From the sequence record PQ202980: a stretch of 55,550 nt of DNA; one strand, 5' to 3'. Position numbers and translations under genes: made by a program. A model generated the notes under the pieces. That model had not been told where the DNA came from and made no database searches. It saw only the letters and a list, made by a program, of their open reading frames with translations. Each line of letters begins with the position of its first letter. Positions within the stretch are counted from its first letter, which is position 1. Source of the DNA: Escherichia phage CSP1C. Shown here in pieces: positions 1,428 through 32,577 of this stretch.

Positions 1428-2924
1428 ATGGGTATTGATGCAACTCACCCGCTATATGACAAGTGGAAGGATGCATGGGTTAAGTGCAACGACTGCTATG
1501 AGGGTGAAGATAAAATTAAGGAAGAAGGTGTTAAATATCTACCACCTTTAGCTTCCATGATTATTGATGGGATGAATAATCCTAATGATTTGGGCTTTCA
1601 ACGTTGGCTCGCTTATCGTCTGCGTGCTAACTTCCCTGACGATTATTCAAGTGCTGTCACAAACAATTTAGGTCTGTTGCACCAGAAGCCTCCTACAATC
1701 CAGCTTCCCCCTGAAATGGAATACATGCGGGAGCTGTGTACTGCGGATGGTGAAGACATTATTGCTCTGCTACGTCGCATCAACGAAATGCAGTTAAAAA
1801 ATGGACGTTTGGGCCTGCTGCTGGACTTGCCAAAAGGTGAGGATGTAAATAACAGACCGTATATTAGCGTTTATGATGCTTTATCCATTATCAACTGGGA
1901 TGATGGTAAAGATGAATTAGGCAATATCAACTTGAACATGGTTGTTCTGGATGAAAGCGGGCCTGTACGTGTCAATCAGTTTGACTGGAAAGAAGAGAAG
2001 CGTTATCGCGTCCTGCAATTAGGCCCGATGGACACAGATGAAGTTGCAGGTGGAGCGGTCTACTCCCAGCATTTATTTATCAACAATACCAATTATGATG
2101 AAGGGCAAATGATTGCTCCTTATTATAAAGGTAATACGCTGGACGAAATACCTTTCCAGTTTGTTAATACGACAGATATTACACCAGCACCGGAAGCGCC
2201 TCCATTGTTGGGGCTAGCTAACATCTGCCTAAGCATGTACCGAAGCGACGCTGATTACCGTCAAAGTCTGCATATGCAGGGTCAGGACACGTTAGTTGTT
2301 GTTGGTGGCTTGGGTGAGAATGGAGATAAAGCCCCTCAGCGCATCGGTCCCGGAGCGGTCATTAACGTTGCTCTTGGGGGTGACGCTAAATATGTAGGCG
2401 TTAGCGGTGATGGTTTGTCCGAGCAACGCCTTGCATTGGCAGCGGATAAGCAGGAAGCTCAGATTAAAGCTGGGCAGATGGTAAACAACACCAAGAGCAC
2501 GCAGGAGTCAGGCGAAGCTATGAAAACGCGTATTGCTGCGCGTACCGCTAGCCTGATTCGAATTGCGTATACTGGTGCGGCAGGTTTGGAAAACTTGCTG
2601 AAGGTCTGCGCTAAATGGATGGGTGCTGATCCAGAGAAAGTTGTGGTTAAGCCTAATCTTGAATTTACCAAGAGCATGTTTAACGGTCAGGACTTTGTTC
2701 AAATTATTACTGCACGCAACCTTAAGGCCCCGATCAGCTTGCAGTCTATTCATGGCTGGCTTGTTGATCAGGGCTTGACCACACTAAGCTTTGAAGAAGA
2801 AATGGCAATTCTTGAAGAAGAGCTTAAGAAGTGGCCTCTGCCCGATGATGCTAAAGCTGATTTAAACGCAGAGCAGCAAGTAAACAAAGATCCTAAGGAA
2901 GACGACGCTTCCGATAAAGAATAG
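1428..2924 (+). CDS. portal protein
   Basis: 498 aa ORF directly after terL, SD GGAGGG upstream; size and position typical of portal. Confidence 0.75.
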   Translation: MGIDATHPLYDKWKDAWVKCNDCYEGEDKIKEEGVKYLPPLASMIIDGMNNPNDLGFQRWLAYRLRANFPDDYSSAVTNNLGLLHQKPPTIQLPPEMEYMRELCTADGEDIIALLRRINEMQLKNGRLGLLLDLPKGEDVNNRPYISVYDALSIINWDDGKDELGNINLNMVVLDESGPVRVNQFDWKEEKRYRVLQLGPMDTDEVAGGAVYSQHLFINNTNYDEGQMIAPYYKGNTLDEIPFQFVNTTDITPAPEAPPLLGLANICLSMYRSDADYRQSLHMQGQDTLVVVGGLGENGDKAPQRIGPGAVINVALGGDAKYVGVSGDGLSEQRLALAADKQEAQIKAGQMVNNTKSTQESGEAMKTRIAARTASLIRIAYTGAAGLENLLKVCAKWMGADPEKVVVKPNLEFTKSMFNGQDFVQIITARNLKAPISLQSIHGWLVDQGLTTLSFEEEMAILEEELKKWPLPDDAKADLNAEQQVNKDPKEDDASDKE

Positions 2925-3019
2925 TTGCAACTTCCAAATTGATTGGTTTATATTAACGAACACGGGGCTGGGACGGCTCAGCCCCAAAAACGTCACACGG
3001 GTGACAACGGAGATAAGAA

Positions 3020-3892
3020 ATGAAAAAGAGTTCTGTAGCTATTAATGTTGGTATGGCTTTAATTAATCCACGCGCTCGCGGTGAAGGTGATGTGGAACTG
3101 GAATACGAATATGCATCTGCGGAAGAGATTCCGGCAGAGTTTGCTGCTCTTTACGCAGAGCAGGGCGGTAAATACGTTCTTGCAAAAGTTAAAGGTGTAG
3201 CCCCTGCTGATAGCGTTCGTCGTCTGGAAAGTGCGTTAGCTAAAGAACGTAACGACCATCGTCAGGTGAAGCAACAGATTAGCGCACTTGGGCGTCCGGT
3301 TGAAGAAGTCCTTGCGGACCTTGATCGTATCCCTCAACTGGAAGCTGCCGCTAACGGTAAAGGTACTCCGGAAGACATCGAAAAGATGGTTAAAGCCCGT
3401 CTTGCTCCACTCGAGCGTCAATTGCAAACTGTAGCAGCTGAACGCGATTCCGTTAAACAGGAAATTGAAGGCTACCGCACTCGCGAAACTAAAGCGAAGA
3501 TTAAAGATGCAGTTATTGCCGCTGCTTCTGGTGCTAAATTGCGTCCATCCGCTATCGAAGACGCTGTAACTTATGCACAGTTGCAGATGACCGTCGACGA
3601 GAACGGCAATGTGGTTACGAAAGATGGGGCTGGTGTAACTCCTTACCTGACTCCGGCTGACTGGCTGAACGAAATCCTTCCGAAACGTCCGCACTGGGTT
3701 GAAGGATCTGCTGGTGGTGGTGCATCTGGTCCGGGCGCTGGTGGCCATCACGGTGAAGATCCATACAGCCACGACGGTTGGAACATCTCTAAGCAGATGA
3801 ACCTCTGGAAAACTAACCAATCTTTAGCTAAACGTTTAGCTGAAAAGAATGGCGTAGACCCGCTGAAGCCTGTACGTCCTGCTAAGAAATAA
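3020..3892 (+). CDS. putative scaffolding / head morphogenesis protein
   Basis: 290 aa, charged and helical with Gly-rich C-terminus, between portal and major capsid gene; SD GGAG. Confidence 0.4.
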   Translation: MKKSSVAINVGMALINPRARGEGDVELEYEYASAEEIPAEFAALYAEQGGKYVLAKVKGVAPADSVRRLESALAKERNDHRQVKQQISALGRPVEEVLADLDRIPQLEAAANGKGTPEDIEKMVKARLAPLERQLQTVAAERDSVKQEIEGYRTRETKAKIKDAVIAAASGAKLRPSAIEDAVTYAQLQMTVDENGNVVTKDGAGVTPYLTPADWLNEILPKRPHWVEGSAGGGASGPGAGGHHGEDPYSHDGWNISKQMNLWKTNQSLAKRLAEKNGVDPLKPVRPAKK

Positions 3893-4014
3893 GTTGACAT
3901 CCCGACGTCCCTGATGTTAAGTTTCAACACATCAGGGACACGGGTTCCTAAACAGCCTTCCACGGGGAAAGGCTACCAACAGTAAACAAATCAATCCTTT
4001 TCCTGGAGACAAGT

Positions 4015-5076
4015 ATGTCTAAATCTAAAATTATTCTACCATTTGGTCGTGGTGAAACTGACCTGACTCGTTTGAAGGATGTCATTGTCCCTGAGATCTT
4101 CACTGGTTATGTGCAGACGCAGACCGCTGAACTTTCTGCCCTGATCCAATCCGGTGCGGTTGTAATGGACGAGCGTTTATCTGCTAACCTTGCTGGTGCA
4201 GGTTTGACTTTTAACGAGCCGTTCTATAATGACCTGAAAGACGAAGACGAAGATATTGCGATCGATAAAGGTGCTCCGTCCAAACCGTCAAACATCACTA
4301 CCGGATCTGAAGTTCAGGTTCGTATGAGTCGCTCAAAATCCTGGGGTTCTGCGGATCTGGTATCTGCTTTGATTGGTAACGACCCAATGACCGCTATCGG
4401 TAATCGCGTGTCTGCGTGGTGGGTTCGCCGTCTGCAAGCTGCATACATTGCAACCTGGAAAGGTGTATTTGCTAATGCCAAGAAATCCCATTCGGACGAT
4501 CTGACGTTCGATATTTCCGGTTCTTCATTTGTAAACAACCAGACCAACTTTACCGCGTCTAACTTCATCAACGCAACTGCAACGATGGGTGATGCTGCTC
4601 GTGGTCTGACCATGATTATGGTACACTCTACCGTTCGTAATCGTATGCGTCAGCTGAACCTGATCGACTTCATTCCGGATGCTCGCGGTGAAACTCAGTT
4701 CGAGTATTATCAGGGTTTGCGTATTATTGAAGACGACTCCATGCCGCACGATCCGTCTACTGGTATCTTTGAAAGCTGGCTGTTCGGCCCGGGCGCGACT
4801 GCAATGGGTGCTGGTTCACCAAAAGTTCCGACCGCTGTGGTTCGTGACGAAGCTGCTAACAATGGCGCTGGTGAAGAAGTTCTTCACAACCGTGTTGAAT
4901 GGATTCTGCATCCGGTCGGTCATGCTTGGGCTGCTGCCCAAACTGCTAAAGGTGGTCCGTCTAACGCTGCTACCACTAACAACCTGGCCCATGAAGATTC
5001 CTGGCGTCGTGCGTTCCCTGAGCGCAAGCAGCTTAAAGTCGCACGCCTGATCACTCGTGAGTATCAGGGTTCCTAA
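4015..5076 (+). CDS. major capsid protein (HK97-fold type)
   Basis: 353 aa ORF with SD GGAG, followed by a strong terminator; position after portal/scaffold. Confidence 0.7.
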   Translation: MSKSKIILPFGRGETDLTRLKDVIVPEIFTGYVQTQTAELSALIQSGAVVMDERLSANLAGAGLTFNEPFYNDLKDEDEDIAIDKGAPSKPSNITTGSEVQVRMSRSKSWGSADLVSALIGNDPMTAIGNRVSAWWVRRLQAAYIATWKGVFANAKKSHSDDLTFDISGSSFVNNQTNFTASNFINATATMGDAARGLTMIMVHSTVRNRMRQLNLIDFIPDARGETQFEYYQGLRIIEDDSMPHDPSTGIFESWLFGPGATAMGAGSPKVPTAVVRDEAANNGAGEEVLHNRVEWILHPVGHAWAAAQTAKGGPSNAATTNNLAHEDSWRRAFPERKQLKVARLITREYQGS

Positions 5077-5107
5077 GGCTTCACTCAACGCCGCGCTGTA
5101 GTATTTT

Positions 5108-5133
5108 GGGGACATTTATGTCCCCTCTTTTTT
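5108..5133 (+). terminator. rho-independent terminator after major capsid gene
   Basis: GGGGACAT..ATGTCCCC stem followed by TCTTTTTT. Confidence 0.7.
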
Positions 5134-5145
5134 AGGAGAACAACC

Positions 5146-5469
5146 ATGCGTTATCAACGTTATGAACGACATGACTTGATGGAAAAATCGTTGCAGGTGG
5201 AGCCAATTTCGATTACTCTCGATCCTGCTAAGATTGACACCACAACTTCAGAAGTAAAGACGGTTACTGTTAAAATAAACTTTGTCCCAGGCGGAACTAC
5301 AAACAAAGCGTATAGCGCGTCAGTTGACGGTTCCTCTGCTACAATTAAAGACAACGGGGACGGTACAATTACCGTGACCACAACCGCAAGCAGTGGTACT
5401 TCAAACTTGACAGTAACGTCCAAGGCAAAGGATAGTGTTACTGGTACATGTGTTATTAATGTGACCTAA
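5146..5469 (+). CDS. Ig-like (Big_2-type) domain protein, possible capsid decoration protein
   Basis: 107 aa, Thr/Ser/Val-rich beta-strand pattern (TVTVKINF..GTITVTTTASSG..LTVTSKA) typical of bacterial Ig-like domains; SD AGGAGA. Confidence 0.5.
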   Translation: MRYQRYERHDLMEKSLQVEPISITLDPAKIDTTTSEVKTVTVKINFVPGGTTNKAYSASVDGSSATIKDNGDGTITVTTTASSGTSNLTVTSKAKDSVTGTCVINVT

Positions 5470-5486
5470 AAAATAAGGATTAAACA

Positions 5487-6140
5487 ATGAAGACATTAAT
5501 TGAAGCATTGTTAGAACTTGATCCGGATAACCCGAATCATTGGACTAGCGACGGTCTACCTAAAGTTGACGCTCTGCGTTTCGCTACTGCTAACCCGTCT
5601 TTAACCCGCGACGATATTACAACTGCTGCTCCGCTGTTTACCCGCGATAACCGCGTGCTGGAAGAGCCAGAGGCAGTGGAACCTGTTAAATCTGCTGATC
5701 CAGTTTTACATGAAGCTGTCAAACAGGAGAAAGCTCATGAAGAACAAAAGAAAGTCGCGGTTGCAACGATGCAAATCGAAGTTAAGATTAGCGAAGCACT
5801 GCGTGCTCTTCTGGAGCCGGAAAAAATCGGTGACACTTCCAGCCTAAGCGATGAAGAGCTAAAAGCGAAGCGTGAAAAGCTTAGCAATGTGGTTAAAGAG
5901 ATTGCCCACACTAAGCACGCGCTGGAGCTCGCTATTGCAGACGTTCAAGCGGATCTGGATAAGATTATCGTTGAGCAGGAAAGTCGTCGTCCTAAGTCCG
6001 GTCTTACTGCAACTCAGATGTATCTCGAGGCGCAGAAAAAACGTAAACCTGAAGACATGCTTTCTGACCATCGCTTCCAGAACCCTATTGACGATCCGGT
6101 TGCCCGTATGGTTGCACGTAATATGATGCGTCGAGGTTAA
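5487..6140 (+). CDS. hypothetical head-associated protein
   Basis: 217 aa ORF with SD AAGGA, located in head module. Confidence 0.45.
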   Translation: MKTLIEALLELDPDNPNHWTSDGLPKVDALRFATANPSLTRDDITTAAPLFTRDNRVLEEPEAVEPVKSADPVLHEAVKQEKAHEEQKKVAVATMQIEVKISEALRALLEPEKIGDTSSLSDEELKAKREKLSNVVKEIAHTKHALELAIADVQADLDKIIVEQESRRPKSGLTATQMYLEAQKKRKPEDMLSDHRFQNPIDDPVARMVARNMMRRG

Positions 6141-6278
6141 TCATGGAAATGAGCCATAGACAATATGTGTTGTGGCTCCTCCGACGTAATAGAAAACGGC
6201 GTCAAGAAGACGCCGTTTCTGTTCCTGAAGAAGAGCTCCCGCCACTTATCCCTACAACCATCGCAATGAGGAAGAAAG

Positions 6279-17807: not shown

Positions 17808-17891
17808 TGGGAACTCCTTTTGTGTTGTTGTCAAGGTTCAATTCTAATATACTTGTTGTGTTGAGTAAGTCAAATAAATGTGGGAGATATT

Positions 17892-18062
17892 ATGGCAACT
17901 CGTTTACGTGGTACTTTAGTTGATGGTTTAAATAAACCAATTGTCAACGCTACAGTTGCGCTTTTAGCAAAAGGGAATAGCTTATTGGTATTGTCCGGCA
18001 GTGAAGCTATCTTTAAAACAAGTGCAACCGGAACAACCTGTAGAAGCTCGCGAACATATTAG
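17892..18062 (+). CDS. small ORF with transthyretin-like N-terminal signature (possible gene remnant)
   Basis: 56 aa starting MATRLRGTLVDGLNKPIVNATVAL; SD GGGAGA; another open frame continues to about 18165. Confidence 0.3.
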   Translation: MATRLRGTLVDGLNKPIVNATVALLAKGNSLLVLSGSEAIFKTSATGTTCRSSRTY

Positions 18063-22257: not shown

Positions 22258-23210
22258 TAGACACGTTCTCCAATTAATACACCGCGAAGATTTTCCCCAA
22301 AGAATGCGCAAGGTTGCGGATATAAACTAAAGTCCGCAGTCTTAACCACATTTTCAAGCAATAGCAGGATATCAATATTGTACACTCCCGTTATTGTTCG
22401 GTCCTGTAATACGAAGCTTGCGCCTTCTGCATCGTCATAATGAGTACGCGCCAGACCGTTTTCAATATATACACGCGGTCGGTCTTCTGCGAACGGTTTA
22501 ATTTTATGTAAGCCTTCAAAAAGACCTGGATCAACAGGATGTGCATTGCATTGAACATTTAAAATACGACGTATATCGGGCCACTCTGCATCAATAAGCT
22601 GTGTGCGCAACCAGCGACCTTCCGGATAATGAAACGTTACGTTATTTTTACTGACCTGAATATGTGTCGGGTTAGCTTTAATACGCAGTATTTCTTTAAT
22701 TGCAACGGAAGGTATTATGCAATCGATAGGGAACTGATTACCAAACCAGTATTCCGCAATAGTGACGTTATTTGTAGCAAAAAGACTACCGTTATTAATC
22801 AGGATACCGCAAGCCCACGGACGGGAAGCATCGGACCCAACAAATGGAGCAACGGACTTTACACCATGCACGAAGCGAGCACCGTCTATTTCGTACAAAT
22901 CACCTTCAGGGAATACGTGAGGCGTTTCCTTGTCAATGCAGCGTATAGCAACACGAAACGGTCCGGACTTGATATTAAGTTTACCGTTAGCCATCATTGT
23001 TAACTGTACGGTTTCGTCACAGTTTGAAATAGCTTTAATCATAGGCCCAGCTTCGGGCTTGCAATCAATATCCAGCTCGATAGGGCTACCCAGTGCAATA
23101 ACACCGTTAAAGCCTTGAACCTGTCCGTCACGGATAAGAAAGCTAGTAAGCCCTTCTACCAGTTCCTTTTTAGCGACGGAGCCTTGAACAAATTTAAGAG
23201 CGTCTAACAT
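22257..23210 (-). CDS. DNA polymerase sliding clamp-like protein (DnaN-like)
   Basis: 317 aa; segment LIDAEWPDIRRIL resembles the beta-clamp LVDGRFPDYRRVL region; immediately upstream of and coupled to the polymerase gene. Confidence 0.55.
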   Translation of the reverse strand: MLDALKFVQGSVAKKELVEGLTSFLIRDGQVQGFNGVIALGSPIELDIDCKPEAGPMIKAISNCDETVQLTMMANGKLNIKSGPFRVAIRCIDKETPHVFPEGDLYEIDGARFVHGVKSVAPFVGSDASRPWACGILINNGSLFATNNVTIAEYWFGNQFPIDCIIPSVAIKEILRIKANPTHIQVSKNNVTFHYPEGRWLRTQLIDAEWPDIRRILNVQCNAHPVDPGLFEGLHKIKPFAEDRPRVYIENGLARTHYDDAEGASFVLQDRTITGVYNIDILLLLENVVKTADFSLYPQPCAFFGENLRGVLIGERV

Positions 23211-23437
23211 TAGCGATCCTCGATTGCTCTAATTGTGGTTAAATCTAATTCACAGGTTGGAGGGTATCCATAAAGTCCCATTTGTTTTCCTTGTGCATTA
23301 AACCATGTGCCTGACGGATCCTGCCACTGCTTAGGTGTCTTGTGGAGAAATACTACTCTGTTTTCACCGTAATAATTAATTCTTACGCCTGTGTGAGTAT
23401 ATTTACGTTTACCTTTTGGTCTTCTTAAGTTAGCCAT
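23210..23437 (-). CDS. hypothetical small basic protein
   Basis: 75 aa; ATG 23437 overlaps dpdA stop, its own stop overlaps the clamp ATG. Confidence 0.45.
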   Translation of the reverse strand: MANLRRPKGKRKYTHTGVRINYYGENRVVFLHKTPKQWQDPSGTWFNAQGKQMGLYGYPPTCELDLTTIRAIEDR

Positions 23438-24357
23438 CAAAATAACTCCATTACACGATCACGGAATGTGCCGTCATGGGTAGCGTTAATGTTTGCAGCA
23501 ATTACACCATACGCCCATAAGTTGAAGGCAGCACGTGATTCATAGATTGTTGATAAACGTTCGTAAGTGAAACCGTTTTGCTCAAGGTATTTAAGGACAG
23601 CGTCTTGTTCAATTTCAGTTAATGTTGACACATGTTTACCAAAATGATGGCGGTCCGGTGACTTATCTGATACGCGCATTGGTCCCCACGGAGGAGTAAC
23701 CACACTTCCAAACGCTGCCGCTTGAATCCAGGAGGATGAGTCGCAGCTATACCACGGGTAACGCTCCATAATGGTCGTAGACGTAATACCAAATGCATGA
23801 AGCTTAATCTTAGGGCGACCGCTACCATCGCAAATGTATTTGTCCCACATGCGGTCCAGCCAAGTCTTAAGCGTGTCCGTTGAACGCCCTACCATGCCCC
23901 CAATGGTGATATATTCGTAGTTCTTCATGTAGTATTCAAGATAGCGGAAGTCCTCACCAAAGTGAAAGCATGGTAACGGTTTGGCGCCTCGTGCTTCCAT
24001 TTCAAGCTGGTTACGGTAGGTTTGCAGTGGGTCCCCGATACCATCAAGTACCGATGCCATTACCGCACCATCTTCTACCCGCAGAATATCTTTGTTGCGC
24101 TTGATGTACTCGCAGTATTCAACAATATCAATATGAGCACCCAAAGAGTGCGCAGAGAATGCACCGGAGTCGAGAAACACTTTAGCCCCGTCCGCACGCA
24201 TTTGATCAACATACTTCTGACGCCCAACGTAGTGGTATGATTCCAAAATATGGGGCAGATTGCGCGTGATATTTTTCTCATGCTCCGACAGCTTTTCATA
24301 ACGCTGCTGTCCAGGCATATATCCGTTTGTGTAAACTGCTGCCATAAAAACGTTCAT
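23437..24357 (-). CDS. dpdA: DpdA-like tRNA-guanine transglycosylase homologue (7-deazaguanine DNA insertion)
   Basis: 306 aa; TGT-like protein sitting beside folE/queD/queC/queE. Confidence 0.65.
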   Translation of the reverse strand: MNVFMAAVYTNGYMPGQQRYEKLSEHEKNITRNLPHILESYHYVGRQKYVDQMRADGAKVFLDSGAFSAHSLGAHIDIVEYCEYIKRNKDILRVEDGAVMASVLDGIGDPLQTYRNQLEMEARGAKPLPCFHFGEDFRYLEYYMKNYEYITIGGMVGRSTDTLKTWLDRMWDKYICDGSGRPKIKLHAFGITSTTIMERYPWYSCDSSSWIQAAAFGSVVTPPWGPMRVSDKSPDRHHFGKHVSTLTEIEQDAVLKYLEQNGFTYERLSTIYESRAAFNLWAYGVIAANINATHDGTFRDRVMELF

Positions 24358-24360
24358 GAC

Positions 24361-24567
24361 TTACTCCACGTTGTTTAAAGCTACTACTTCAATGAGATAA
24401 TTTTCTTTCTTAAAGCATTGCTCGCTTAAGATTTGTTCAACTCTAACATGTAGATCCGCATGAATTTGTTTTGCGTTACTGCTTTCAGCAATACCGTCCA
24501 TACATAACAGAACTCTGAAAGTACCTTTTTCTACAGCTCGAACGTTGAAAAAGTATTGTCTTACCAT
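24361..24567 (-). CDS. hypothetical small protein
   Basis: 68 aa from ATG 24567 with SD GGAGG; between folE terminator and dpdA. Confidence 0.4.
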   Translation of the reverse strand: MVRQYFFNVRAVEKGTFRVLLCMDGIAESSNAKQIHADLHVRVEQILSEQCFKKENYLIEVVALNNVE

Positions 24568-24582
24568 ATTTCCTCCAATGAC

Positions 24583-24620
24583 TAAAAAGCCCATACCAGT
24601 ATTATGACCGATATGGGCTT
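24583..24620 (-). terminator. rho-independent terminator after folE
   Basis: 9 bp stem AAGCCCATA / TATGGGCTT followed on the minus strand by TTTTT. Confidence 0.55.
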
Positions 24621-24638
24621 GATCTGTAAAGCTATCTA

Positions 24639-25226
24639 TTATTTACAAGCTTCAAGGAACTCCCGGCGCCATTCTTTACCAATATCGCTACCATGCTCCA
24701 GTTCTGTAGCGCCCCGGAACGCTTTGGTAATAGTAGAGCTACCACATACCTGCTTAACTCCGCGCGACTCCATGCACATATGTTTGGCGTCAATATAAAC
24801 GCATACAGCTTTCGGATTTAGGTGCTCCACAATAGCATCCGCAATCTGGTTAGTAAGTCTTTCCTGTACTTGTAAGCGACGTGAAAAAGCATCCACCACG
24901 CGAGACAGCTTACTAAGACCGACAATGCGACCGTTGGGGACGTAGCCAACCACAGCACGCCCAATAATAGGGGCCATGTGATGCTCGCAATGACTGTATA
25001 CAGGAATATCGCGGACAATGACCATTTCATTCGAACCTTCCGCACCATCTTCAAAGGTTTTAAACAATCCAGCGATATTTACATCGTAACCACCGAACCA
25101 TGTAGCATAAGCTTTAGCTACACGTGACGGAGTTTCTTGTAAGCCTTGACGCAGAGTAGGTGAAGCATGGTCTTCAATATTAAACAACAGGGACATCACA
25201 GCGTTTTCAACAGCTTTAATATTCAT
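24639..25226 (-). CDS. folE: GTP cyclohydrolase I
   Basis: 195 aa with hallmark HCEHHMAP motif and overall FolE-like sequence. Confidence 0.85.
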   Translation of the reverse strand: MNIKAVENAVMSLLFNIEDHASPTLRQGLQETPSRVAKAYATWFGGYDVNIAGLFKTFEDGAEGSNEMVIVRDIPVYSHCEHHMAPIIGRAVVGYVPNGRIVGLSKLSRVVDAFSRRLQVQERLTNQIADAIVEHLNPKAVCVYIDAKHMCMESRGVKQVCGSSTITKAFRGATELEHGSDIGKEWRREFLEACK

Positions 25227-25261
25227 GGTTTGCAGTTTCCTTGTTTGTTAATGTGGTCATA

Positions 25262-25795
25262 TTACAGGCTATAGTTTACGTGACATTTCGAAGTTTCTTC
25301 GATGGTGCATTCTACAAGTTGAACACCATGTTCGTCAAGCAGTTGCGGCCCAATTACGTTAACCATATATGCAGCTAAATTTTCCGCAGTCGGGTTGAAC
25401 GGTAAAGACACCAGCGAGTTGTCAAAGTCCCTTACATCTTGACCCGTAGTTTCGTCACAAAGTTCACAATCAACCTGAAGAGCTTTAATCAAAGGATCTT
25501 CTTCCCAATGCAGGAACTTATGATCCCAATTATCTTCCAACCACTGGCAGAGTGTAGTTTTAACCACACTAAAGTCAATCACGCGCCCGACGCGGTCCAG
25601 CTTAGCGCGCTCTTTTACTTCAACGTTAACAAGACCTCCGCCCATTTCAATTGGTACTTCTTTGACTGTTTCTTTCGGTGCAACCTTAAAGTGAAACTTA
25701 TAGTTGTGACCGTGAAGGTGACGGCACTTGCTTTCATGACCAACAACACGATGCCCAGCGCAAATTTCATGTGAACGAATTACTGTATAGCTCAT
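25262..25795 (-). CDS. queD: 6-carboxy-5,6,7,8-tetrahydropterin synthase
   Basis: N-terminal CAGHRV..HGHNY motif characteristic of the PTPS/QueD family; longer than bacterial QueD. Confidence 0.8.
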   Translation of the reverse strand: MSYTVIRSHEICAGHRVVGHESKCRHLHGHNYKFHFKVAPKETVKEVPIEMGGGLVNVEVKERAKLDRVGRVIDFSVVKTTLCQWLEDNWDHKFLHWEEDPLIKALQVDCELCDETTGQDVRDFDNSLVSLPFNPTAENLAAYMVNVIGPQLLDEHGVQLVECTIEETSKCHVNYSL

Positions 25796-26382
25796 TTTAA
25801 TACCTCTTTAGACTGTTCAATTTCTAATGCACGCTGTGCGGATGCAATAATATCTTTCAAATCTTCTACCAGACTTTTATGACCACGTTCGCCCGGCTGC
25901 AACGCCTTTTTAATCAAATGTTGTAAAGCTGGGTTAGTTGTTTTCCAAGCTTCCAAGACATCATACACGTCCACGATGCATTTTACAACATTGCCGTTTT
26001 CATCTTTACCATAAATAATTTTCTGATATTTATTCATGGGAATTTTAGATGGTTCATATTTGGTAAAAACTGCACCATTAAATGTATTACTTATGCTTAT
26101 TCCAGAAGAAGGTTGATGGTACACTCCGGAGCGAGTGTTTTCGCTGGCTTGTTTGACGTAATCATCCGCAACGATATATCGCCAGGCTATAATATCTTGA
26201 ACTTTATAAGGGCTATATTCATCCATAGCTGAACGCCCTTCTATAGCCCAATCCCATCCATGTAATAAATTCTTAACGTGTGTGCCGTTGCGCAAACGAA
26301 CTTCAAACTTCTCATTACGAAGAAAAATAGGCATTCCTTTACCGTCGTGTTGGTGCCAAATTTTATTAAGATTATCTTTCAT
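25792..26382 (-). CDS. hypothetical protein embedded in 7-deazaguanine cluster
   Basis: About 196 aa; ATG 26382 couples to upstream stop, own stop overlaps queD ATG; no recognisable catalytic motif. Confidence 0.5.
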   Translation of the reverse strand: MKDNLNKIWHQHDGKGMPIFLRNEKFEVRLRNGTHVKNLLHGWDWAIEGRSAMDEYSPYKVQDIIAWRYIVADDYVKQASENTRSGVYHQPSSGISISNTFNGAVFTKYEPSKIPMNKYQKIIYGKDENGNVVKCIVDVYDVLEAWKTTNPALQHLIKKALQPGERGHKSLVEDLKDIIASAQRALEIEQSKEVLK

Positions 26383-26383
26383 T

Positions 26384-26863
26384 TTACGCTCTCGCTGTAC
26401 GTGAATGAACTTCGTAAACAACCCAAAGGATGGCAGATGCTGTGAACTTGCTTAAGCTCATTGCTACCATTGATCCCGGATTAACAATACCTATAATACT
26501 TAAGAACACAATGGAGTCAATCGGTACAGCTACCAAAGAGCTAATAAATACACGTTGATGAAACGGCTTCTTAGTAATCGTGTATACCGCATAGTCCGCA
26601 AACTCACTGAGGGCAAAAGACGCAACTGATGCAACTACAACAGCAGGATCCCCAAATACCCAGCTAAGGATACAACCGACAATCATTGCAGGGATAACAC
26701 CTTTACCTGCGTTACGCTGTGCATAGTCGCGCAACACAAAGATAATACCTACAAAGAAAGCCATCATTGGGACTACGCCAAGCGGCGTGTTAAGCATTGG
26801 AAGGTAGGAAAAGCCCAGGTTTACGAATGTAATTGCAGCCAGATAAGCAACGATAAATTTCAT
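26384..26863 (-). CDS. putative queuosine-precursor transporter (YhhQ/DUF165-like) membrane protein
   Basis: 159 aa polytopic membrane protein from ATG 26863 (SD GGAGAA); location inside the preQ0 gene cluster. Confidence 0.5.
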   Translation of the reverse strand: MKFIVAYLAAITFVNLGFSYLPMLNTPLGVVPMMAFFVGIIFVLRDYAQRNAGKGVIPAMIVGCILSWVFGDPAVVVASVASFALSEFADYAVYTITKKPFHQRVFISSLVAVPIDSIVFLSIIGIVNPGSMVAMSLSKFTASAILWVVYEVHSRTARA

Positions 26864-26983
26864 ACTTTTGTTCTCCAGTTTTAACAGCGTTATTCGCTGG
26901 TTGTTGGGTTTAAAAGCTTTAGTAGTATAGTTGGGTTCCCGCACCCTAAACAATGCGCTAGCGGTGCGGTTTTCGCGGTAAGA

Positions 26984-27691
26984 TCAAGCTTTGCTAATAA
27001 ATTCGCTGTACCCTTTAGCACGCAGTTTGCACGCAGGGCATTCACCGCAACCATAGCCCCAGTCATGCAGAGTGCGACGGACGCCGTTATAACACGTATG
27101 GGACTGCTCAATTACTGTGGTTAAGAAGCCAACCTTATCCGCCAGCTCAAACGTTTCTGCTTTATTTAAACGCATAAGCGGGGTAACAAAATGAATATCT
27201 GTTTCATATCCAACGTTTAACGTAGCTTCAAGAAGATCAACAAACTGCTGGCGACAATCCGGATAACCGCTATAGTCTGTTTCACAAACGCCTGTAACCA
27301 CATATCGGGCTCCAACTTTCTGCGCGTAGGCGTGCGCGGTAGTCAGGAAAAGAGCATTACGGTTTGGCACAAAGCTAGCCGGAAGGTTTTTGTGCTGTTC
27401 GTGATGTTCGTTAACATCACCTTCGTTCCCGATTAAAGCGCTATTACCAATCTGTTTCAAAGCAGGTAATTCAAAGACAACAAATGGGACATCGTGCTCT
27501 TTACAGATCTGTTCAGCGCAAGCCAATTCCACAGTGTGACGTTGACCGTATGCAAAACCAATAGCGTAAACCTTATCATAGTTATTAAGTGCAAGACCTA
27601 AACAGGTCACGCTGTCCTGGCCGCCAGACAGGACGACAACGGCGGAGTTATGATTTTTTACAGGGAATACCAGTTTATCTAATTTATTCAT
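26984..27691 (-). CDS. queC: 7-cyano-7-deazaguanine synthase
   Basis: PP-loop VVVLSGGQDS and C-terminal Zn-binding Cys cluster CYNG..CGECPAC; ATG 27691. Confidence 0.85.
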   Translation of the reverse strand: MNKLDKLVFPVKNHNSAVVVLSGGQDSVTCLGLALNNYDKVYAIGFAYGQRHTVELACAEQICKEHDVPFVVFELPALKQIGNSALIGNEGDVNEHHEQHKNLPASFVPNRNALFLTTAHAYAQKVGARYVVTGVCETDYSGYPDCRQQFVDLLEATLNVGYETDIHFVTPLMRLNKAETFELADKVGFLTTVIEQSHTCYNGVRRTLHDWGYGCGECPACKLRAKGYSEFISKA

Positions 27692-27692
27692 T

Positions 27693-27881
27693 TTAGAAAC
27701 CTTTAAGGCTAATATTAAGATTAACGACCACTTGTTCAACTACATCATCAGATGTCATCTGACGCTTATGAATTTCAAGCTCCGAATGTATGTTCTTGGA
27801 TGCAGCACGACAGATAGCGTCATTCAGCTCGTCTTGTAAACGTTGCATCTTCTGCATAAGAATCACAGTCTCTTCATTCAT
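27693..27881 (-). CDS. hypothetical small protein (paralogue of 27874..28086)
   Basis: 62 aa, SD AAGGTG; shares ELN.AI..A....EL.I pattern with neighbouring gene. Confidence 0.4.
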   Translation of the reverse strand: MNEETVILMQKMQRLQDELNDAICRAASKNIHSELEIHKRQMTSDDVVEQVVVNLNISLKGF

Positions 27882-28086
27882 CTTCTACACCTTTAATATC
27901 ACAAGGATTGATTGTTACAGTTGACATCACAATTGGATGATTGCGTGCCCCGATTGTACTAACGTGATTAATATCTAATTCTACATGCACTCCCTGCATG
28001 GTAGCGTGAGCAATTGCAGAATTAAGTTTTTCTACCAGCTCAGTGATCATTTCCTGATGCTGTTTCGCTTCTTCCAAAGTGATCAT
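27874..28086 (-). CDS. hypothetical small protein (paralogue of 27693..27881)
   Basis: 70 aa, SD GAAGGTG; alternative ATG at 28050. Confidence 0.4.
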   Translation of the reverse strand: MITLEEAKQHQEMITELVEKLNSAIAHATMQGVHVELDINHVSTIGARNHPIVMSTVTINPCDIKGVEDE

Positions 28087-28342
28087 TTCTTTTCACCTTC
28101 ACTAATGTTTGTTTATAATCCATACCTTCAAGGTCAACTTCTGCCATTTCACAAAAGTTATCATCTTCCCAGTATGATGTCCATTTAGTTTGACTGTCCA
28201 TCAACGTTGGCTCATACTCGAATCCGTAAACTGTACCGTCTTGATCCGTAGCCAGCCACCGTACCCATTCAGGGACATCAAGCTTATTGCCAAAGTATTC
28301 AACTTCTTTAGTATGAACAACCTGACTTAATACACGCATCAT
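28040..28342 (-). CDS. hypothetical protein, member of 3-copy paralogous family
   Basis: 100 aa; VPEWVRWLATDQDGTVYGFEYEPT and EVDLEGMDYKQTL shared with ORFs at 49334 and 50172. Confidence 0.45.
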   Translation of the reverse strand: MMRVLSQVVHTKEVEYFGNKLDVPEWVRWLATDQDGTVYGFEYEPTLMDSQTKWTSYWEDDNFCEMAEVDLEGMDYKQTLVKVKRNDHFGRSETASGNDH

Positions 28343-29046
28343 TCCACCCCGATATATTTGTGAACCTGAAGCTGCAACGTGTACCCGTGTTTCATACAGC
28401 TTTTGACAACCGCTTGGATGTTACTGTGGTTAAGGTCTTCATCCTGCTCGTCCATTGGCTGTAAATATATCTTACCCTTGAACCCCTTCGGAGGTCTAGC
28501 GATAAATGGTGTAGCTTGATGATCTAATGCTTGAAGAGGCAAACCATCTTCCACGTTTACACAGCACGCTTTAAGTACATATTTAAATGCATTAGCGCGG
28601 TACAGCACAGAAGGATGAATCTTTGAGGTCTTGGGGCTACATACAATGACAGGTAGCTGGGAAAAGTCCTTCGGTAAAGGCATAGACCCATTAGTTTCAA
28701 TCTGTACCAAATACCCGCGCGATAACAGTTGTTCGACAAAAGGGTTAATTTGCTGACGGAACGGTTCACCACCAGTGATAACCACAAGTGAGGTGCTATT
28801 GCCTGATTCCAGCTTACGGCTTTCGATTAAACGCATGATATCAACAATGTGGTAAAGAGAACGACCTACAGTATAATCAGTATCACAGCCCGGACATTGC
28901 AGGTTACACCCAGCAAGTCGCACAAATACAGCAGGCTGGCCGCAGAATGGACCTTCACCCTGAATGGTAGAGAATACCGAATGCACGTCTAAATACATAT
29001 CGTTTTCTTTAGAACGAGACTCGGGAGCTTGTTGATTAATATTCAT
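28339..29046 (-). CDS. queE: 7-carboxy-7-deazaguanine synthase (radical SAM)
   Basis: Cys motif CNLQCPGCDTDY and VVITGGEP typical of QueE. Confidence 0.85.
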   Translation of the reverse strand: MNINQQAPESRSKENDMYLDVHSVFSTIQGEGPFCGQPAVFVRLAGCNLQCPGCDTDYTVGRSLYHIVDIMRLIESRKLESGNSTSLVVITGGEPFRQQINPFVEQLLSRGYLVQIETNGSMPLPKDFSQLPVIVCSPKTSKIHPSVLYRANAFKYVLKACCVNVEDGLPLQALDHQATPFIARPPKGFKGKIYLQPMDEQDEDLNHSNIQAVVKSCMKHGYTLQLQVHKYIGVE

Positions 29047-29061
29047 CTTAAATCCTCTAGT

Positions 29062-29090
29062 GAAAAAGAAAGCGCCTCATTGGGCGCTTT
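29062..29090 (-). terminator. rho-independent terminator
   Basis: AAAGCGCC tcattg GGCGCTTT stem followed on the minus strand by TTTCTTTTTC. Confidence 0.6.
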
Positions 29091-29115
29091 CATTATAACG
29101 TGATATGTTTTGATA

Positions 29116-29919
29116 TTACAAGCCGTTCAGGGCTTCCGGTACTGGTACAGGTACGCGACCAGTCACACCATTAAATTTCTTCCAGCGTGCATACTGGGTT
29201 TTAACGGTATCTTCGTTCAAACCATGGCGACCAGCCAGGTTCAGAACATAAGAGATCGGAGCAGGCTGACCCAGCGTAGCGCTAATCTGGTCCATCAGAG
29301 CCCAGGCACGACCGCAGGAAGTTTCCGGTTGTGGACGACGAACACCGTTCTGTTCCGGCATACGATTAGCTTCTTTTTCTTTCTCGCGGAGCTCTTTAGC
29401 GCGTGCTTTTTCCGCTTCTTTTTCTGCCTGTTTTGCAGCACGGATCTTGTCTTTGAAGCCTTTAATAGTAGCTTCCAGACCATCCACCAGACCCTGGGCA
29501 GAAGTTACAGCACCGGACAGGTCTTCACCTTTAGACTTCTTAACGACAGCTTTCAGCTCTTTCAGAGCTTCTTTAATGGTCTTCAGGTTTGCAGATCCCT
29601 GAGTTTCTGCTTCCGTGATTTGTTCAACAGTGCTTTCGTCGGTGACGGTAGCTAAAGAGTTTTTCAGGATTTCAGCAGCGTTAGCAATCGCATTAAATTT
29701 GTTTTCCGCTTCAGTGCGGATTTCAGCTTGTTTCTTTTCAGCGGCAGCTTTTTTCTCTGCTTCTTTTTTCTCTTTTGCTACGCGTGCAGCTTCAGCGGCA
29801 GCGGCTTTCTTAGCTTCTGTATCATTCACAGTAGCTTCTTTCTTTGCAGGTTTAGCAGATTTTGCAGCGGCAGCAGCGGCAGCAGCGGCAGCGGCTTTTT
29901 TATCTTCAATGTTGCTCAT
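29116..29919 (-). CDS. Ala/Lys-rich low-complexity protein with conserved C-terminal domain (histone-like / DNA-binding candidate)
   Basis: ATG 29919 (track start 29928 is GTG); polyAla run plus KKAAAEK repeats; C-terminal TVKTQYARWKKFNG domain shared with ORF 45820..46434. Confidence 0.5.
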   Translation of the reverse strand: MSNIEDKKAAAAAAAAAAAKSAKPAKKEATVNDTEAKKAAAAEAARVAKEKKEAEKKAAAEKKQAEIRTEAENKFNAIANAAEILKNSLATVTDESTVEQITEAETQGSANLKTIKEALKELKAVVKKSKGEDLSGAVTSAQGLVDGLEATIKGFKDKIRAAKQAEKEAEKARAKELREKEKEANRMPEQNGVRRPQPETSCGRAWALMDQISATLGQPAPISYVLNLAGRHGLNEDTVKTQYARWKKFNGVTGRVPVPVPEALNGL

Positions 29920-30600: not shown

Positions 30601-32577
30601 TTAGAACGGAACGTAATCCGGATCATCTACTTGTACAGGGTTAACCACATTGTTCACCGTTATGCCTTGCGTATTCTGTGAAACAATATCATCCCAGCTC
30701 ACATCATCATTATAGCTTGGACCTTCTGTTGTTCCATCCTGCCCGTATACTTTAACTTGAATAGCTTCGTCGTCCTGTGGAGCTTCAAACTTACCGAAAC
30801 ACGTACCATCATAATCGTAGTTCAATATCTCAGGCCATTTCTTATTGGTATGAACTTTGATGTATTTCGGTGTTTTAAGCATTGCAGCAACATCAAGAGC
30901 TTCTTCAATAGTTTGTGGTAAAGGAAGATGCGTCCTTTTCTTCCACCATGCAACCGCTTTACGACCTGCCCAGTCACCATGAAGTAGAGCTACCCATTCG
31001 CTGAATATTTTACTACCGCAATAATAAGTCACCTTCATTGTTGGAGGTTTGGAGCTGTCATTGCGTTTAGTGTGCTTCGCATAAGTAACATGCGTAACTT
31101 TAAAGTCTTCAACTACAGGAATGTCCTGCTTAATCAATGCTTCGGTACTTGCTGCCTTTTTAAGTTTGGTTTGGAACTTAAACTCATGACCGCAAAATCC
31201 TTCTTTAACATAATCCGTTCCACGTAGTCTGAATCCCTTCAAATATAATTGTTGAACTTGTTCCTGTGTAACGCTGTCCATAGGAATTGGTGCAAAGCCA
31301 CCGCAATAGCGAGCAGATGCATGATTATACGACCCGCACACATCGCATTCTTTAACCGGAGCAGTACCAGCACCTTTTTCGCCCGGGCGCTTGGGTTTAA
31401 CAGGGTCGTTAATAGGTCCCAAACGGCGCGTATTACCGCTGAAATCCAGTACAAGGCAGTTCTGCTTAGGACTTGCTGCAATAGCTTGCAAGCGACCTTC
31501 CTGCGTGGAAAGATCAAAGCCCTCCGCATATACCGGACGCGTACCGCGACCCAACATCTGAACCCATAGCACCGCCGAGGCAGTTGGGCGAAGCATGATA
31601 ATCAGATCAAGCATTGGATGGTCGAAACCTGTGGTTAAGACGTTGTTGTTTGTCAGCGCTCGAAACTCTCCACGCTTGAACTTTTCAATAATTTCATCAC
31701 GCTCTTTTGCATCAAGCTTTGAGTGAATACATCCGCAACTAATACCCATATCGTTCAGCATATCACACGCATCTTTAGCGTGTTCAATACCAGAACAAAA
31801 TATAAGCCAGCTTTGACGGTCTTCACCACATTCAATGGCTTCCTCAAGTGCGCGGAGTGTTGCGTCGTCGCGGTTTACCGCACTTTGTAGCTCACTCTGG
31901 ATAAACTCACCGCCGCGTTTCCCTACACCATTGAGGTCTAGTTCCATCTTTGTACGCTTTGGCACAACCGGAAGCAAATAGCCTTGCTCCAGGAACCAGT
32001 TAAAGGCTTCAGGGGTAGTTGCATCAAACGTTACTTTATCAAATAAAGCATCATCGTCTTTGTTTTCCTTAACAATTGAACCGTAACCCAGTCGGTAAGG
32101 TGTAGCAGTAAGACCGATAATTTTTAAATACGGGTTAACTTCACGCAATGCTGCAAAGAACTTCTTATACATTGTTGCATCACGCGGACTAATAAGGTGC
32201 GCTTCATCCACAAAGATTAGATCAACCTTGCCGAACTTTTTAGGATGCTTAGCAACAGATGCAATCCCCGCAAATGTGATAAGATTATAGACTTCTTTAC
32301 GCTTCAAACCTGCGCTGTAAATACCTGCTGGCGCTTCAGGCCAGACTTTCATTAATTTATCATAGTTTTGTGCAATTAACTCTTTGACGTGAGTTAACAT
32401 CATTACGCGCTGGTTTGGATACCATTTATAAAGCAGATCGAGGAACCCCGCGATAACGAGCGATTTTCCTGTCCCTGTTGGTAACAGGATCAAAGGGTTC
32501 CCCGCGTTACCCTTTTCAGCATCAAAATAGCGGAATACGCTATAAACTGCTTCCTGTTGATAATCGCGGAGCTGCAT
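30601..32577 (-). CDS. SF2 DEAH-type DNA helicase
   Basis: Walker A PTGTGKSL and DEAH box FVDEAHL; ATG 32577 (track start is TTG); C-terminal Cys-rich region. Confidence 0.8.
   Translation of the reverse strand: MQLRDYQQEAVYSVFRYFDAEKGNAGNPLILLPTGTGKSLVIAGFLDLLYKWYPNQRVMMLTHVKELIAQNYDKLMKVWPEAPAGIYSAGLKRKEVYNLITFAGIASVAKHPKKFGKVDLIFVDEAHLISPRDATMYKKFFAALREVNPYLKIIGLTATPYRLGYGSIVKENKDDDALFDKVTFDATTPEAFNWFLEQGYLLPVVPKRTKMELDLNGVGKRGGEFIQSELQSAVNRDDATLRALEEAIECGEDRQSWLIFCSGIEHAKDACDMLNDMGISCGCIHSKLDAKERDEIIEKFKRGEFRALTNNNVLTTGFDHPMLDLIIMLRPTASAVLWVQMLGRGTRPVYAEGFDLSTQEGRLQAIAASPKQNCLVLDFSGNTRRLGPINDPVKPKRPGEKGAGTAPVKECDVCGSYNHASARYCGGFAPIPMDSVTQEQVQQLYLKGFRLRGTDYVKEGFCGHEFKFQTKLKKAASTEALIKQDIPVVEDFKVTHVTYAKHTKRNDSSKPPTMKVTYYCGSKIFSEWVALLHGDWAGRKAVAWWKKRTHLPLPQTIEEALDVAAMLKTPKYIKVHTNKKWPEILNYDYDGTCFGKFEAPQDDEAIQVKVYGQDGTTEGPSYNDDVSWDDIVSQNTQGITVNNVVNPVQVDDPDYVPF

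Follow-up and report, generated by a model that had tools for sequence, protein, structure and literature searches.

A very probable Seuratvirus 7-deazaguanine DNA-modification module in Escherichia phage CSP1C

The question raised by this locus is whether a set of preQ0 biosynthesis genes lying together with a transglycosylase gene serves to modify the phage DNA, and which base would result. The window is the whole stretch analyzed, 55,550 nt (one strand) from Escherichia phage CSP1C, record PQ202980, and all coordinates are window positions. The first-pass annotation had placed folE, queD, queE, queC and dpdA at 23437-29046, and HMM and PHROG matches located all five there, on the minus strand. 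The stop codon of dpdA and the start codon of queE are the exact limits of this span, which contains 11 ORFs, all intact and all on the minus strand, in the order queE, three small ORFs, queC, the YhhQ-like gene, a 196-aa ORF, queD, folE, a 68-aa ORF and dpdA. The genes named earlier were correct, but the list had overlooked the YhhQ/VUT-like protein at 26384-26863. Five passenger ORFs (085, 088, 082, 081 and 080) are unassigned. The features are as follows.

23437..24357, minus strand: dpdA, putative DNA-guanine transglycosylase inserting preQ0 into DNA (306 aa)
24361..24567, minus strand: CSP1_088, small ORF (68 aa, or 77 aa if started at the upstream ATG at 24594)
24639..25226, minus strand: folE, GTP cyclohydrolase I (195 aa), which opens the pathway from GTP
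25262..25795, minus strand: queD, 6-carboxytetrahydropterin synthase (177 aa)
25792..26382, minus strand: CSP1_085, 196-aa passenger
26384..26863, minus strand: yhhQ-like gene, VUT-family membrane protein (159 aa)
26984..27691, minus strand: queC, single-domain preQ0 (7-cyano-7-deazaguanine) synthase without a Gat fusion (235 aa)
27693..27881, minus strand: CSP1_082, 62-aa ORF
27874..28086, minus strand: CSP1_081, 70-aa ORF
28040..28339, minus strand: CSP1_080, 99-aa ORF, variably present in the cluster
28339..29046, minus strand: queE, radical-SAM 7-carboxy-7-deazaguanine synthase (235 aa)
29068..29121, minus strand: terminator-like hairpin (29091-29068) and promoter-like site (29121-29092)

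The cluster was identical at 5610 of 5610 nt to that of Cronobacter phage CSP1 (KY982929.1), whose record carries prior annotation of the cluster genes; the cluster was therefore already known. Aligned over 83-97% of its length, it was 89-95% identical to the DNA of Seurat, CAjan and the BASEL Seuratvirus phages, and the flanking polymerase, clamp and helicase proteins were 97-99% identical to those of SeppeHuegi. Nucleotide similarity and synteny with classified members place the phage in the genus Seuratvirus (Queuovirinae). The GenBank record of CSP1 has no genus assignment; the recorded host of CSP1 is Cronobacter sakazakii and that of CAjan is E. coli. Immediately upstream of queE, a consensus scan found a hairpin with a 9-pair stem, 6 of the pairs being GC, and a T run after it, beside a promoter-like site (TTGTAA-18-TATAAT). 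Together they are a possible, if weak, candidate for a transcription unit boundary, the totals of hairpin- and promoter-like sites in the region showing no excess over shuffled sequence.

The preQ0 pathway is complete, as had been claimed, with FolE, QueD, QueE and QueC all supported by family-level HMM matches whose E-values lie far outside chance. The motifs cited earlier were all present; those given by residue were located by regular expression. FolE matched PF01227 (E 3e-61, 206 bits vs. a cut-off of 27) and TIGR00063 (186 bits vs. 181.6), carries HCEHH at residue 79 and is 86.7% identical to CAjan FolE. It also matched QueF weakly, below cut-off; the T-fold is common to FolE and QueF. 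QueD matched PF01242 (E 2e-22, 80 bits vs. 22.4) and fell below the NCBIfam equivalog cut-offs; it has CRHLHGH (CxxxHGH) at residue 24 and 72.4% identity to CAjan QueD. The top NCBIfam matches of QueE were five QueE models (E 6e-28 to 3e-20), all under their equivalog cut-offs (97.7 vs. 200), and PHROG 2076 matched with E 3e-68. The motifs CNLQCPGC (CX3CX2C) and GGEP were found at residues 47 and 92, and the protein is 98.3% identical to CAjan QueE.

QueC, 95.7% identical to its CAjan counterpart, matched PF06508 (E 1e-74, 251 bits vs. 22) and TIGR00364 (242 bits vs. 150). SGGQDS is present at residue 22, and a C-terminal four-cysteine (Zn) cluster, C-x14-C-x2-C-x2-C, was read off the translation. 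The protein aligned to positions 130-351 of the 418 in PHROG 1550, the extra N-terminal positions of which are probably the Gat domain of fused homologues. The first-pass annotation had recognized no queF, arcS or Gat-QueC fusion, and a scan of 27 window proteins likewise turned up no member of the QueF, ArcS or Gat families. QueC, at 235 aa, is a single domain that matched PF06508 only, so the Gat-QueC fusion, ArcS or QueF-L amidotransferase of Nonagvirus-type dG+ synthesis is not found here.

DpdA matched PHROG 887, labelled 'queuine tRNA-ribosyltransferase', with E 2e-96. It is identical to CAjan DpdA at 305 of 306 residues (99.7%), the sole difference being P182A, and 100% identical to DpdA of the BASEL phage SeppeHuegi. 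This closeness to a validated phage enzyme places it in the Queuovirinae-type DpdA family, which was found in 236 phage records. No Pfam family, TGT included, matched even at E 10, no PDB sequence matched by phmmer or profile search, and the bacterial DpdA model NF041059 gave 17 bits, below its cut-off of 200. The earlier claim of a TGT-like dpdA depended on the fold, and a TGT-like (beta/alpha)8 barrel was found in the core of the structure model. The mean pLDDT of the model was moderate (65) and the C-terminal 100 residues were poorly predicted; the fold assignment stands on the core, about residues 40-206. DpdA is thus inside the TGT fold superfamily and outside the sequence families of bacterial DpdA (NF041059) and Pfam TGT.

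The catalytic aspartates and the preQ0/guanine pocket of CAjan DpdA comprise D63, S64, F67, D105, H132, G153, G154, F189 and D206 (PMC7544227). All nine are the same at the same positions in the window protein and are invariant across 35 homologues of 69-75% identity. By analogy with CAjan DpdA, the only one for which preQ0 insertion into DNA has been demonstrated by genetics and LC-MS/MS (PMC6884629), the enzyme would act on DNA and not on tRNA. The GenBank label of CSP1_089, 'queuosine tRNA-ribosyltransferase', should become DpdA, DNA transglycosylase.

The YhhQ-like protein gave direct HMM matches that were both below cut-off, to Vut_1/PF02592 (E 4.5e-5, 24.3 bits vs. 27.2) and TIGR00697 (E 3e-4, 20.5 bits vs. 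50.95). Most of its homologues have precomputed PF02592 assignments, and they link it to the cellular 'queuosine precursor transporter' with E 1e-13 to 1e-9. The hydropathy plot has several hydrophobic segments of membrane-spanning length. At 159 aa the protein is shorter than its cellular homologues (187-201 aa), and it is 98.7% identical to CAjan YhhQ; modification in CAjan does not require that protein (PMC7544227). It is a putative preQ0 importer for salvage.

The CAjan cluster, dpdA-folE-queD-yhhQ-queC-queE, has the same gene order and orientation as that of the window, and in both it lies between polymerase/clamp genes and a helicase gene. The two differ in that CSP1 has the extra ORF 080 beside queE and lacks a 107-aa CAjan ORF beside queD, and the small ORFs between dpdA and folE are unrelated. 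SeppeHuegi (Bas24, a BASEL Seuratvirus) likewise shares the gene order, with QueE, QueC, YhhQ, 085, 082 and 081 97-99% identical, whereas its FolE (83%) and QueD (71%) are mosaic and its ORF 080 is a 15-aa remnant. The SeppeHuegi record annotates a 7-deazaguanosine inserting enzyme, a dPreQ0 synthase and a preQ0 transporter. The archaeosine cluster of Nonagvirus (9g, ChristophMerian) occupies the same genomic position beside polymerase and clamp genes, and its DpdA, FolE, QueD and QueE are 69%, 76%, 73% and 64% identical to those of the window. However, ChristophMerian encodes Gat-QueC as a fusion protein of 471 aa, to which dG+ synthesis has been attributed (PMC8594841); its QueC part is only 29% identical to the window QueC, and a yhhQ homologue was not found in the Nonagvirus locus examined. 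The bacterial Dpd system (DpdA/DpdB/DpdC of Salmonella Montevideo; DpdA structure 7UI4) has a DpdA of 413 aa with 17% identity to that of the window; DpdB- and DpdC-like families were not found among the scanned window proteins.

The experimental record is that of the relatives; a literature search, including the supplements of PMC6884629, found no chemical or genetic data on CSP1 itself. [quoted passage not shown] Knockout of CAjan dpdA left no 7-deazaguanine and allowed full digestion by restriction enzymes (PMC6884629). Protection was lost in the folE and queC knockouts and kept in the yhhQ knockout, and the modification motifs were mapped with nanopore data to GA and GGC (PMC7544227). The BASEL phages of the genus Seuratvirus show notable resistance in vivo to restriction-modification systems of both type I and type II (PMC8594841).

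It is very probable, then, that the locus is the 7-deazaguanine DNA-modification module of Seuratvirus, subfamily Queuovirinae. The base identity, target motifs, post-replicative timing and restriction protection are predicted here by analogy with CAjan and other relatives. During infection, the phage would take GTP to preQ0 (7-cyano-7-deazaguanine) in four steps: FolE would convert GTP to dihydroneopterin triphosphate, QueD would yield 6-carboxytetrahydropterin, the radical-SAM enzyme QueE 7-carboxy-7-deazaguanine, and QueC preQ0. The YhhQ-like protein may bring in extracellular preQ0 too. DpdA, with its TGT fold, would then act on double-stranded phage DNA once it has been replicated, exchanging guanine for preQ0 by way of a covalent intermediate on aspartate, with D206 as the nucleophile and D63 as the general base, and probably targeting GA and GGC motifs. 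These contexts include 28.3% of guanines in the window, or 63 per 10^3 nt, consistent with the 44-71 per 10^3 nt measured for CAjan. Given a single-domain QueC that lacks a Gat fusion, and with QueF and ArcS not found, the expected base is dPreQ0. The same base had been proposed before, and it is further supported by a DpdA one residue from that of CAjan, whose virion DNA carries it.

It was considered whether one of ORFs 085, 088, 082, 081 and 080 makes a further derivative, such that the inserted base is dG+, dADG, dPreQ1 or an undescribed compound instead of dPreQ0. Five cluster ORFs are without assigned function, 088 and 080 are not common to the CAjan cluster, and the published LC-MS assays covered a fixed list of known derivatives. 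CSP1_088 had no match in Pfam, PHROG or NCBIfam, nor any BLASTP match to the CAjan ORF at the same position. CSP1_085 matched PHROG 23361 (E 5e-100) and no Pfam family, and is 55% identical to the CAjan ORF at its position. Its C-terminal domain of about 55 aa is widely shared; the last 78 aa matched 755 phage records, mostly of Salmonella, Escherichia and Acinetobacter phages. CSP1_082 and CSP1_081 are 85% and 96% identical to the corresponding CAjan ORFs; 082 is a weak paralogue of 081, and in the Seuratvirus genomes compared the pair has queE on one side and queC on the other. PHROG 26258, which CSP1_081 matched with E 3e-50, is labelled 'radical SAM domain-containing protein', but the protein has 70 aa, one cysteine and no CxxxCxxC motif. 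CSP1_080 matched PHROG 1972 (E 7e-24); its family is present in 222 phage records, including an unlinked CAjan locus, and a homologue adjoins queE in Nonagvirus ChristophMerian, although none was found at the cluster position in CAjan and SeppeHuegi.

A further derivative is nevertheless very unlikely. QueC is single-domain, the Gat, ArcS and QueF families were absent from the scanned proteins, and ORFs 088, 082, 081 and 080 (62-99 aa) matched no enzyme family. The genus distributions of the 085 C-terminal domain (755 records) and the 080 family (222) are unlike that of DpdA (236). In CAjan, dPreQ0 by itself accounts for roughly as many guanines as occur in GA and GGC contexts, and the yhhQ deletion (550 bp from 31,850) left modification unchanged; as we read the published coordinates, the 085 homologue loses its 5' end in this deletion as well. 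As judged from sequence, the passengers appear to be small phage families common also in phages outside the DpdA set, which makes a hidden tailoring step, the reservation in the first-pass annotation, unlikely. More broadly, there is only a slim chance that 085, the 082/081 pair, 080 or the CSP1-specific 088 acts on the pathway as a tailoring enzyme, a specificity or processivity factor for DpdA, or a regulator; if one did, the derivative or the motif pattern of CSP1 DNA would differ from that of CAjan.

It was also considered whether the cluster modifies tRNA, as an auxiliary metabolic module raising queuosine in host or phage tRNA and so tuning translation. The GenBank and PHROG names are those of a tRNA-ribosyltransferase, and the fold is common to tRNA-guanine transglycosylases and DpdA. 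This is extremely improbable, however, given that knockout of the CAjan gene for the near-identical DpdA abolishes dPreQ0 in DNA (PMC6884629). Moreover, the phage encodes no tRNA genes, the QueF, QueA and QueG families needed for queuosine were not found in the scanned proteins, and DpdA, at 306 aa, is far below the size of ArcTGT (577 aa) and bacterial TGT (about 370 aa). That the module is inactive or cryptic in this genome has a negligible likelihood. A 4.66-kb deletion distinguishes the window from the CSP1 record, and the window may represent a laboratory variant or a different assembly, but the deletion lies outside the cluster, which retains its eleven intact ORFs, its complete identity to CSP1 and its catalytic residues and motifs.

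The DNA-modification module is a Queuovirinae signature, ordinary in this phage group, and a near-identical relative has been characterized genetically and chemically. The Seuratvirus version, which replaces about one quarter to one third of DNA guanines with 7-cyano-7-deazaguanine and so makes the DNA a poor substrate for host restriction enzymes, is among the best-characterized examples, with publications on its chemistry, on knockouts and sequence motifs, and on restriction-modification phenotypes in vivo. The locus brings no new biology and its practical value is modest. It is established that phages counter restriction enzymes by modifying their DNA with 7-deazaguanines, a modification reported also to counter Cas9 in vitro (PMC10484667). 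In CSP1, dPreQ0 would be a barrier to many restriction enzymes of types I and II; the DNA is predicted to resist those with GA or GGC in their sites, such as EcoRV and HaeIII, and to degrade nanopore base-calling.

The first-pass annotation placed folE, queD, queE, queC and dpdA together at 23437-29046, and this was borne out by HMM and PHROG matches. Every gene of the cluster lies on the minus strand, and the following were assigned:

23437-24357, minus strand: dpdA (PHROG 887, E 2e-96)
24639-25226, minus strand: folE (PF01227, E 3e-61; TIGR00063 above cut-off)
25262-25795, minus strand: queD (PF01242, E 2e-22)
26384-26863, minus strand: YhhQ/VUT-like membrane protein, 159 aa (HMM matches just under cut-offs; homologues; hydropathy)
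26984-27691, minus strand: queC (PF06508, E 1e-74; TIGR00364 above cut-off)
28339-29046, minus strand: queE (best matches to five QueE-type radical-SAM models, E 6e-28 to 3e-20; PHROG 2076, E 3e-68)

The claimed span runs exactly from the dpdA stop to the queE start, and the observation was therefore confirmed. All the motifs named at first reading were found in the enzymes (HCEHH, CRHLHGH, CNLQCPGC, GGEP and SGGQDS), including the four-cysteine cluster at the C-terminus of QueC. The YhhQ/VUT-like gene had been overlooked. Homologues of its product carry PF02592 and link up with cellular 'queuosine precursor transporter' proteins, and the hydropathy profile showed several hydrophobic stretches of membrane-spanning length. 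No tRNA genes were found.

Sequence methods were weak for DpdA. Comparison of DpdA and the small ORFs with Pfam at E up to 10 gave nothing meaningful, DpdA scored 17 bits on the bacterial DpdA model (cut-off 200), and neither the single sequence nor a 35-sequence profile matched any PDB chain at E up to 10. The fold was therefore tested by structure prediction, built on the 35-sequence alignment. The mean pLDDT was 65; the core, residues 41-200, was well predicted and the C-terminal third poorly. The TGT-like fold proposed for the dpdA candidate was recovered in the predicted structure, the next-best matches, mostly generic TIM barrels, scoring 9.5 or less, and Foldseek concurred. The protein is identical to the DpdA of Escherichia phage CAjan, a Seuratvirus, at 305 of 306 residues, the sole change being P182A. 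Kot et al. (PMC7544227) assigned CAjan D63, S64, F67, D105, H132, G153, G154, F189 and D206 to the preQ0/guanine pocket and catalysis. All nine are kept in the window protein and are invariant across homologues of about 70% identity. In the record of Cronobacter phage CSP1 this gene (CSP1_089, 23437-24357) still bears the outdated GenBank label 'putative queuosine tRNA-ribosyltransferase'; its product is the DNA transglycosylase DpdA. Directly downstream lies a 75-aa ORF, CSP1_090 (23210-23437), whose start codon shares one base with the dpdA stop. Its protein shows 100% identity with the one in CAjan, which exceeds the conservation of most cluster genes, and family searches gave no match.

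The 5,610 bases of the cluster are 100% identical to positions 50806-56415 of the CSP1 record (KY982929.1), in which CSP1_079 to CSP1_089 are already labelled QueE, QueC, 6-carboxytetrahydropterin synthase, FolE and 'putative queuosine tRNA-ribosyltransferase'. Taken as a whole, the window corresponds to the reverse complement of CSP1, circularly permuted so that it begins at the start codon of the terminase large subunit. Outside the cluster it differs from the record by 4.66 kb of missing sequence, three mismatches and two single gaps. The missing stretch (CSP1 positions 1610-6267) takes in CSP1_008 and CSP1_009 completely, part of CSP1_007 and most of CSP1_010, a 1026-aa 'putative tail fiber protein'. 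The deletion falls within 17880-18062, with a junction at 18022-18035 where both flanks overlap by 14 bp and a truncated 60-aa ORF remains. Hence the window is either a variant of CSP1 with a tail-fibre deletion or a different assembly of this phage, re-oriented to begin at terL. The GenBank record gives no genus for CSP1, though the cluster and flanking replication genes resemble Seuratvirus. Full-text literature searches gave no publication on this phage, and supplementary text searched from PMC6884629 does not mention it.

The cluster DNA is matched at 89-95% identity by about 30 Seuratvirus genomes, Seurat, CAjan and several BASEL phages among them. The clusters of CAjan and the BASEL phage SeppeHuegi run in the same gene order and orientation and lie at the same place in the genome, between the polymerase/clamp genes and the helicase gene, and the CSP1 proteins are 72-99.7% identical to those of CAjan. 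The differences from these two clusters are minor and mosaic. Compared with CAjan, CSP1 has an extra ORF, 080, and lacks a copy of a 107-aa ORF; its small ORF between dpdA and folE is unrelated to the one in CAjan, and its FolE, QueD and 085 proteins are more divergent members. DpdA, FolE, QueD and QueE are 64-76% identical to those of the genus Nonagvirus. With the bacterial Dpd system the fold alone is in common.

The possibility was considered that the base is not dPreQ0 but a derivative of it. The absence of queF, arcS and a Gat-QueC fusion, on which the expectation of dPreQ0 had been based, was upheld: the QueF, ArcS and Gat families were not found among the 27 proteins scanned, and QueC is a single-domain protein of 235 aa that covers only positions 130-351 of the 418-position PHROG 1550 profile. 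FolE gave a weak QueF match under the cut-off; the FolE and QueF families have the T-fold in common. A search for tailoring enzymes hidden elsewhere in the window, by Pfam on ten further hypothetical proteins, returned no families but those of replication and recombination (clamp-like, DUF669, AAA_24, PD-(D/E)XK nuclease and DUF7173). The Nonagvirus Gat-QueC, of 471 aa (positions 3405-4820 of the Nonagvirus locus compared), is reported to make dG+ (PMC8594841). Identity between the Seuratvirus QueC (26984-27691) and the QueC portion of this fusion is only 29%, against the 64-76% of the other four enzymes, so that it appears to belong to a different QueC lineage and not to be a truncated fusion; the two genera thus seem to hold separate lineages, neither a simple fusion nor a truncation of the other. 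A reading of the small ORFs 082 and 081 as what is left of a Gat domain was rejected, since tblastn matched neither of them to the Gat-QueC locus of Nonagvirus and the QueC lineages differ.

The passenger ORFs do not appear dedicated to the 7-deazaguanine pathway. The C-terminal domain of 085 (196 aa) was found in 755 phage records, mainly of Salmonella, Escherichia and Acinetobacter phages, a genus distribution unlike that of DpdA (236 records). This domain, the last ~55 aa (in the C-terminal part, about 25792-26025, of 25792-26382), is highly conserved, widely shared among phages and not in Pfam; it is up to 79% identical in proteins with unrelated N-termini, and the Nonagvirus cluster also has a copy, in a protein of 252 aa. 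The published CAjan yhhQ deletion, of 550 bp from position 31,850, left modification unaffected (PMC7544227). Judged from the table coordinates rather than from any statement of the authors, it would also take the 5' end of the gene homologous to 085 (31513-32082, minus strand). The family of ORF 080, itself 99 aa, has 222 records, including an unlinked CAjan locus. In CSP1 (28040-28339) and phiG7 080 adjoins queE, as does a 40%-identical homologue in the Nonagvirus phage ChristophMerian; SeppeHuegi has a 15-aa remnant, and CAjan lacks 080 there and has a homologue at about 54.9 kb. The 088, 082 and 081 proteins (62-70 aa) matched no enzyme family. Between queC and queE (27693-28086), 082 (62 aa) and 081 (70 aa) show weak paralogy, with 10/26 identical residues and a pairwise E of 6e-5, and resemble a tandem duplication. 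In PHROG and in CAjan, 081 is called a 'radical SAM domain-containing protein'; since it contains a single cysteine and lacks a CxxxCxxC motif, this seems to be a misannotation.

Rfam was employed on the whole window, with special attention to the 120-nt intergenic stretch ahead of the yhhQ-like gene, and no preQ1 riboswitch or other structured RNA was found at gathering thresholds; within 23000-29500 matches were at chance level (E no lower than 0.16). On the minus strand at 29068-29121, in the interval from gene 078 to queE, a promoter-like site (TTGTAA-18-TATAAT) adjoins a strong terminator-like hairpin, whose 9-pair stem has 6 GC pairs and is followed by a T run. Together they may mark the start of the cluster transcription unit. 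A weak sraL match here (E 0.16) is probably due to chance.

The gene identities, motifs and fold, together with the near-identity to characterised proteins, are direct observations on this cluster, and its mechanism would be carried over from the near-identical proteins of the relatives. In CAjan DNA, LC-MS/MS detected no 7-deazaguanine other than dPreQ0, which stood at 70,628 per 10^6 nt or about 32% of guanines, and without dpdA the base was wholly gone and the DNA fully digestible (PMC6884629). Deletion of folE or queC decreased dPreQ0 about 12-fold and abolished protection, deletion of yhhQ had no effect, and nanopore sequencing located the modification in GA and GGC motifs (PMC7544227). 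In the window these contexts hold 28.3% of guanines, or 63 per 10^3 nt, in agreement with the CAjan measurements. The window has 15 EcoRV and 59 HaeIII sites, at which the modification would prevent cutting; AanI and BcuI, enzymes of the CAjan study whose sites have no G in either context, would cut. In vivo, the BASEL Seuratvirus phages show notable resistance to restriction-modification of types I and II but are sensitive to type III (PMC8594841). By homology, the base, target motifs, timing and restriction protection in CSP1 would be the same. The initial reading was thus correct, and the cluster is a known, annotated system, experimentally characterised in near-identical relatives; for CSP1, on which the searches gave no publication, the DNA chemistry is a confident prediction.
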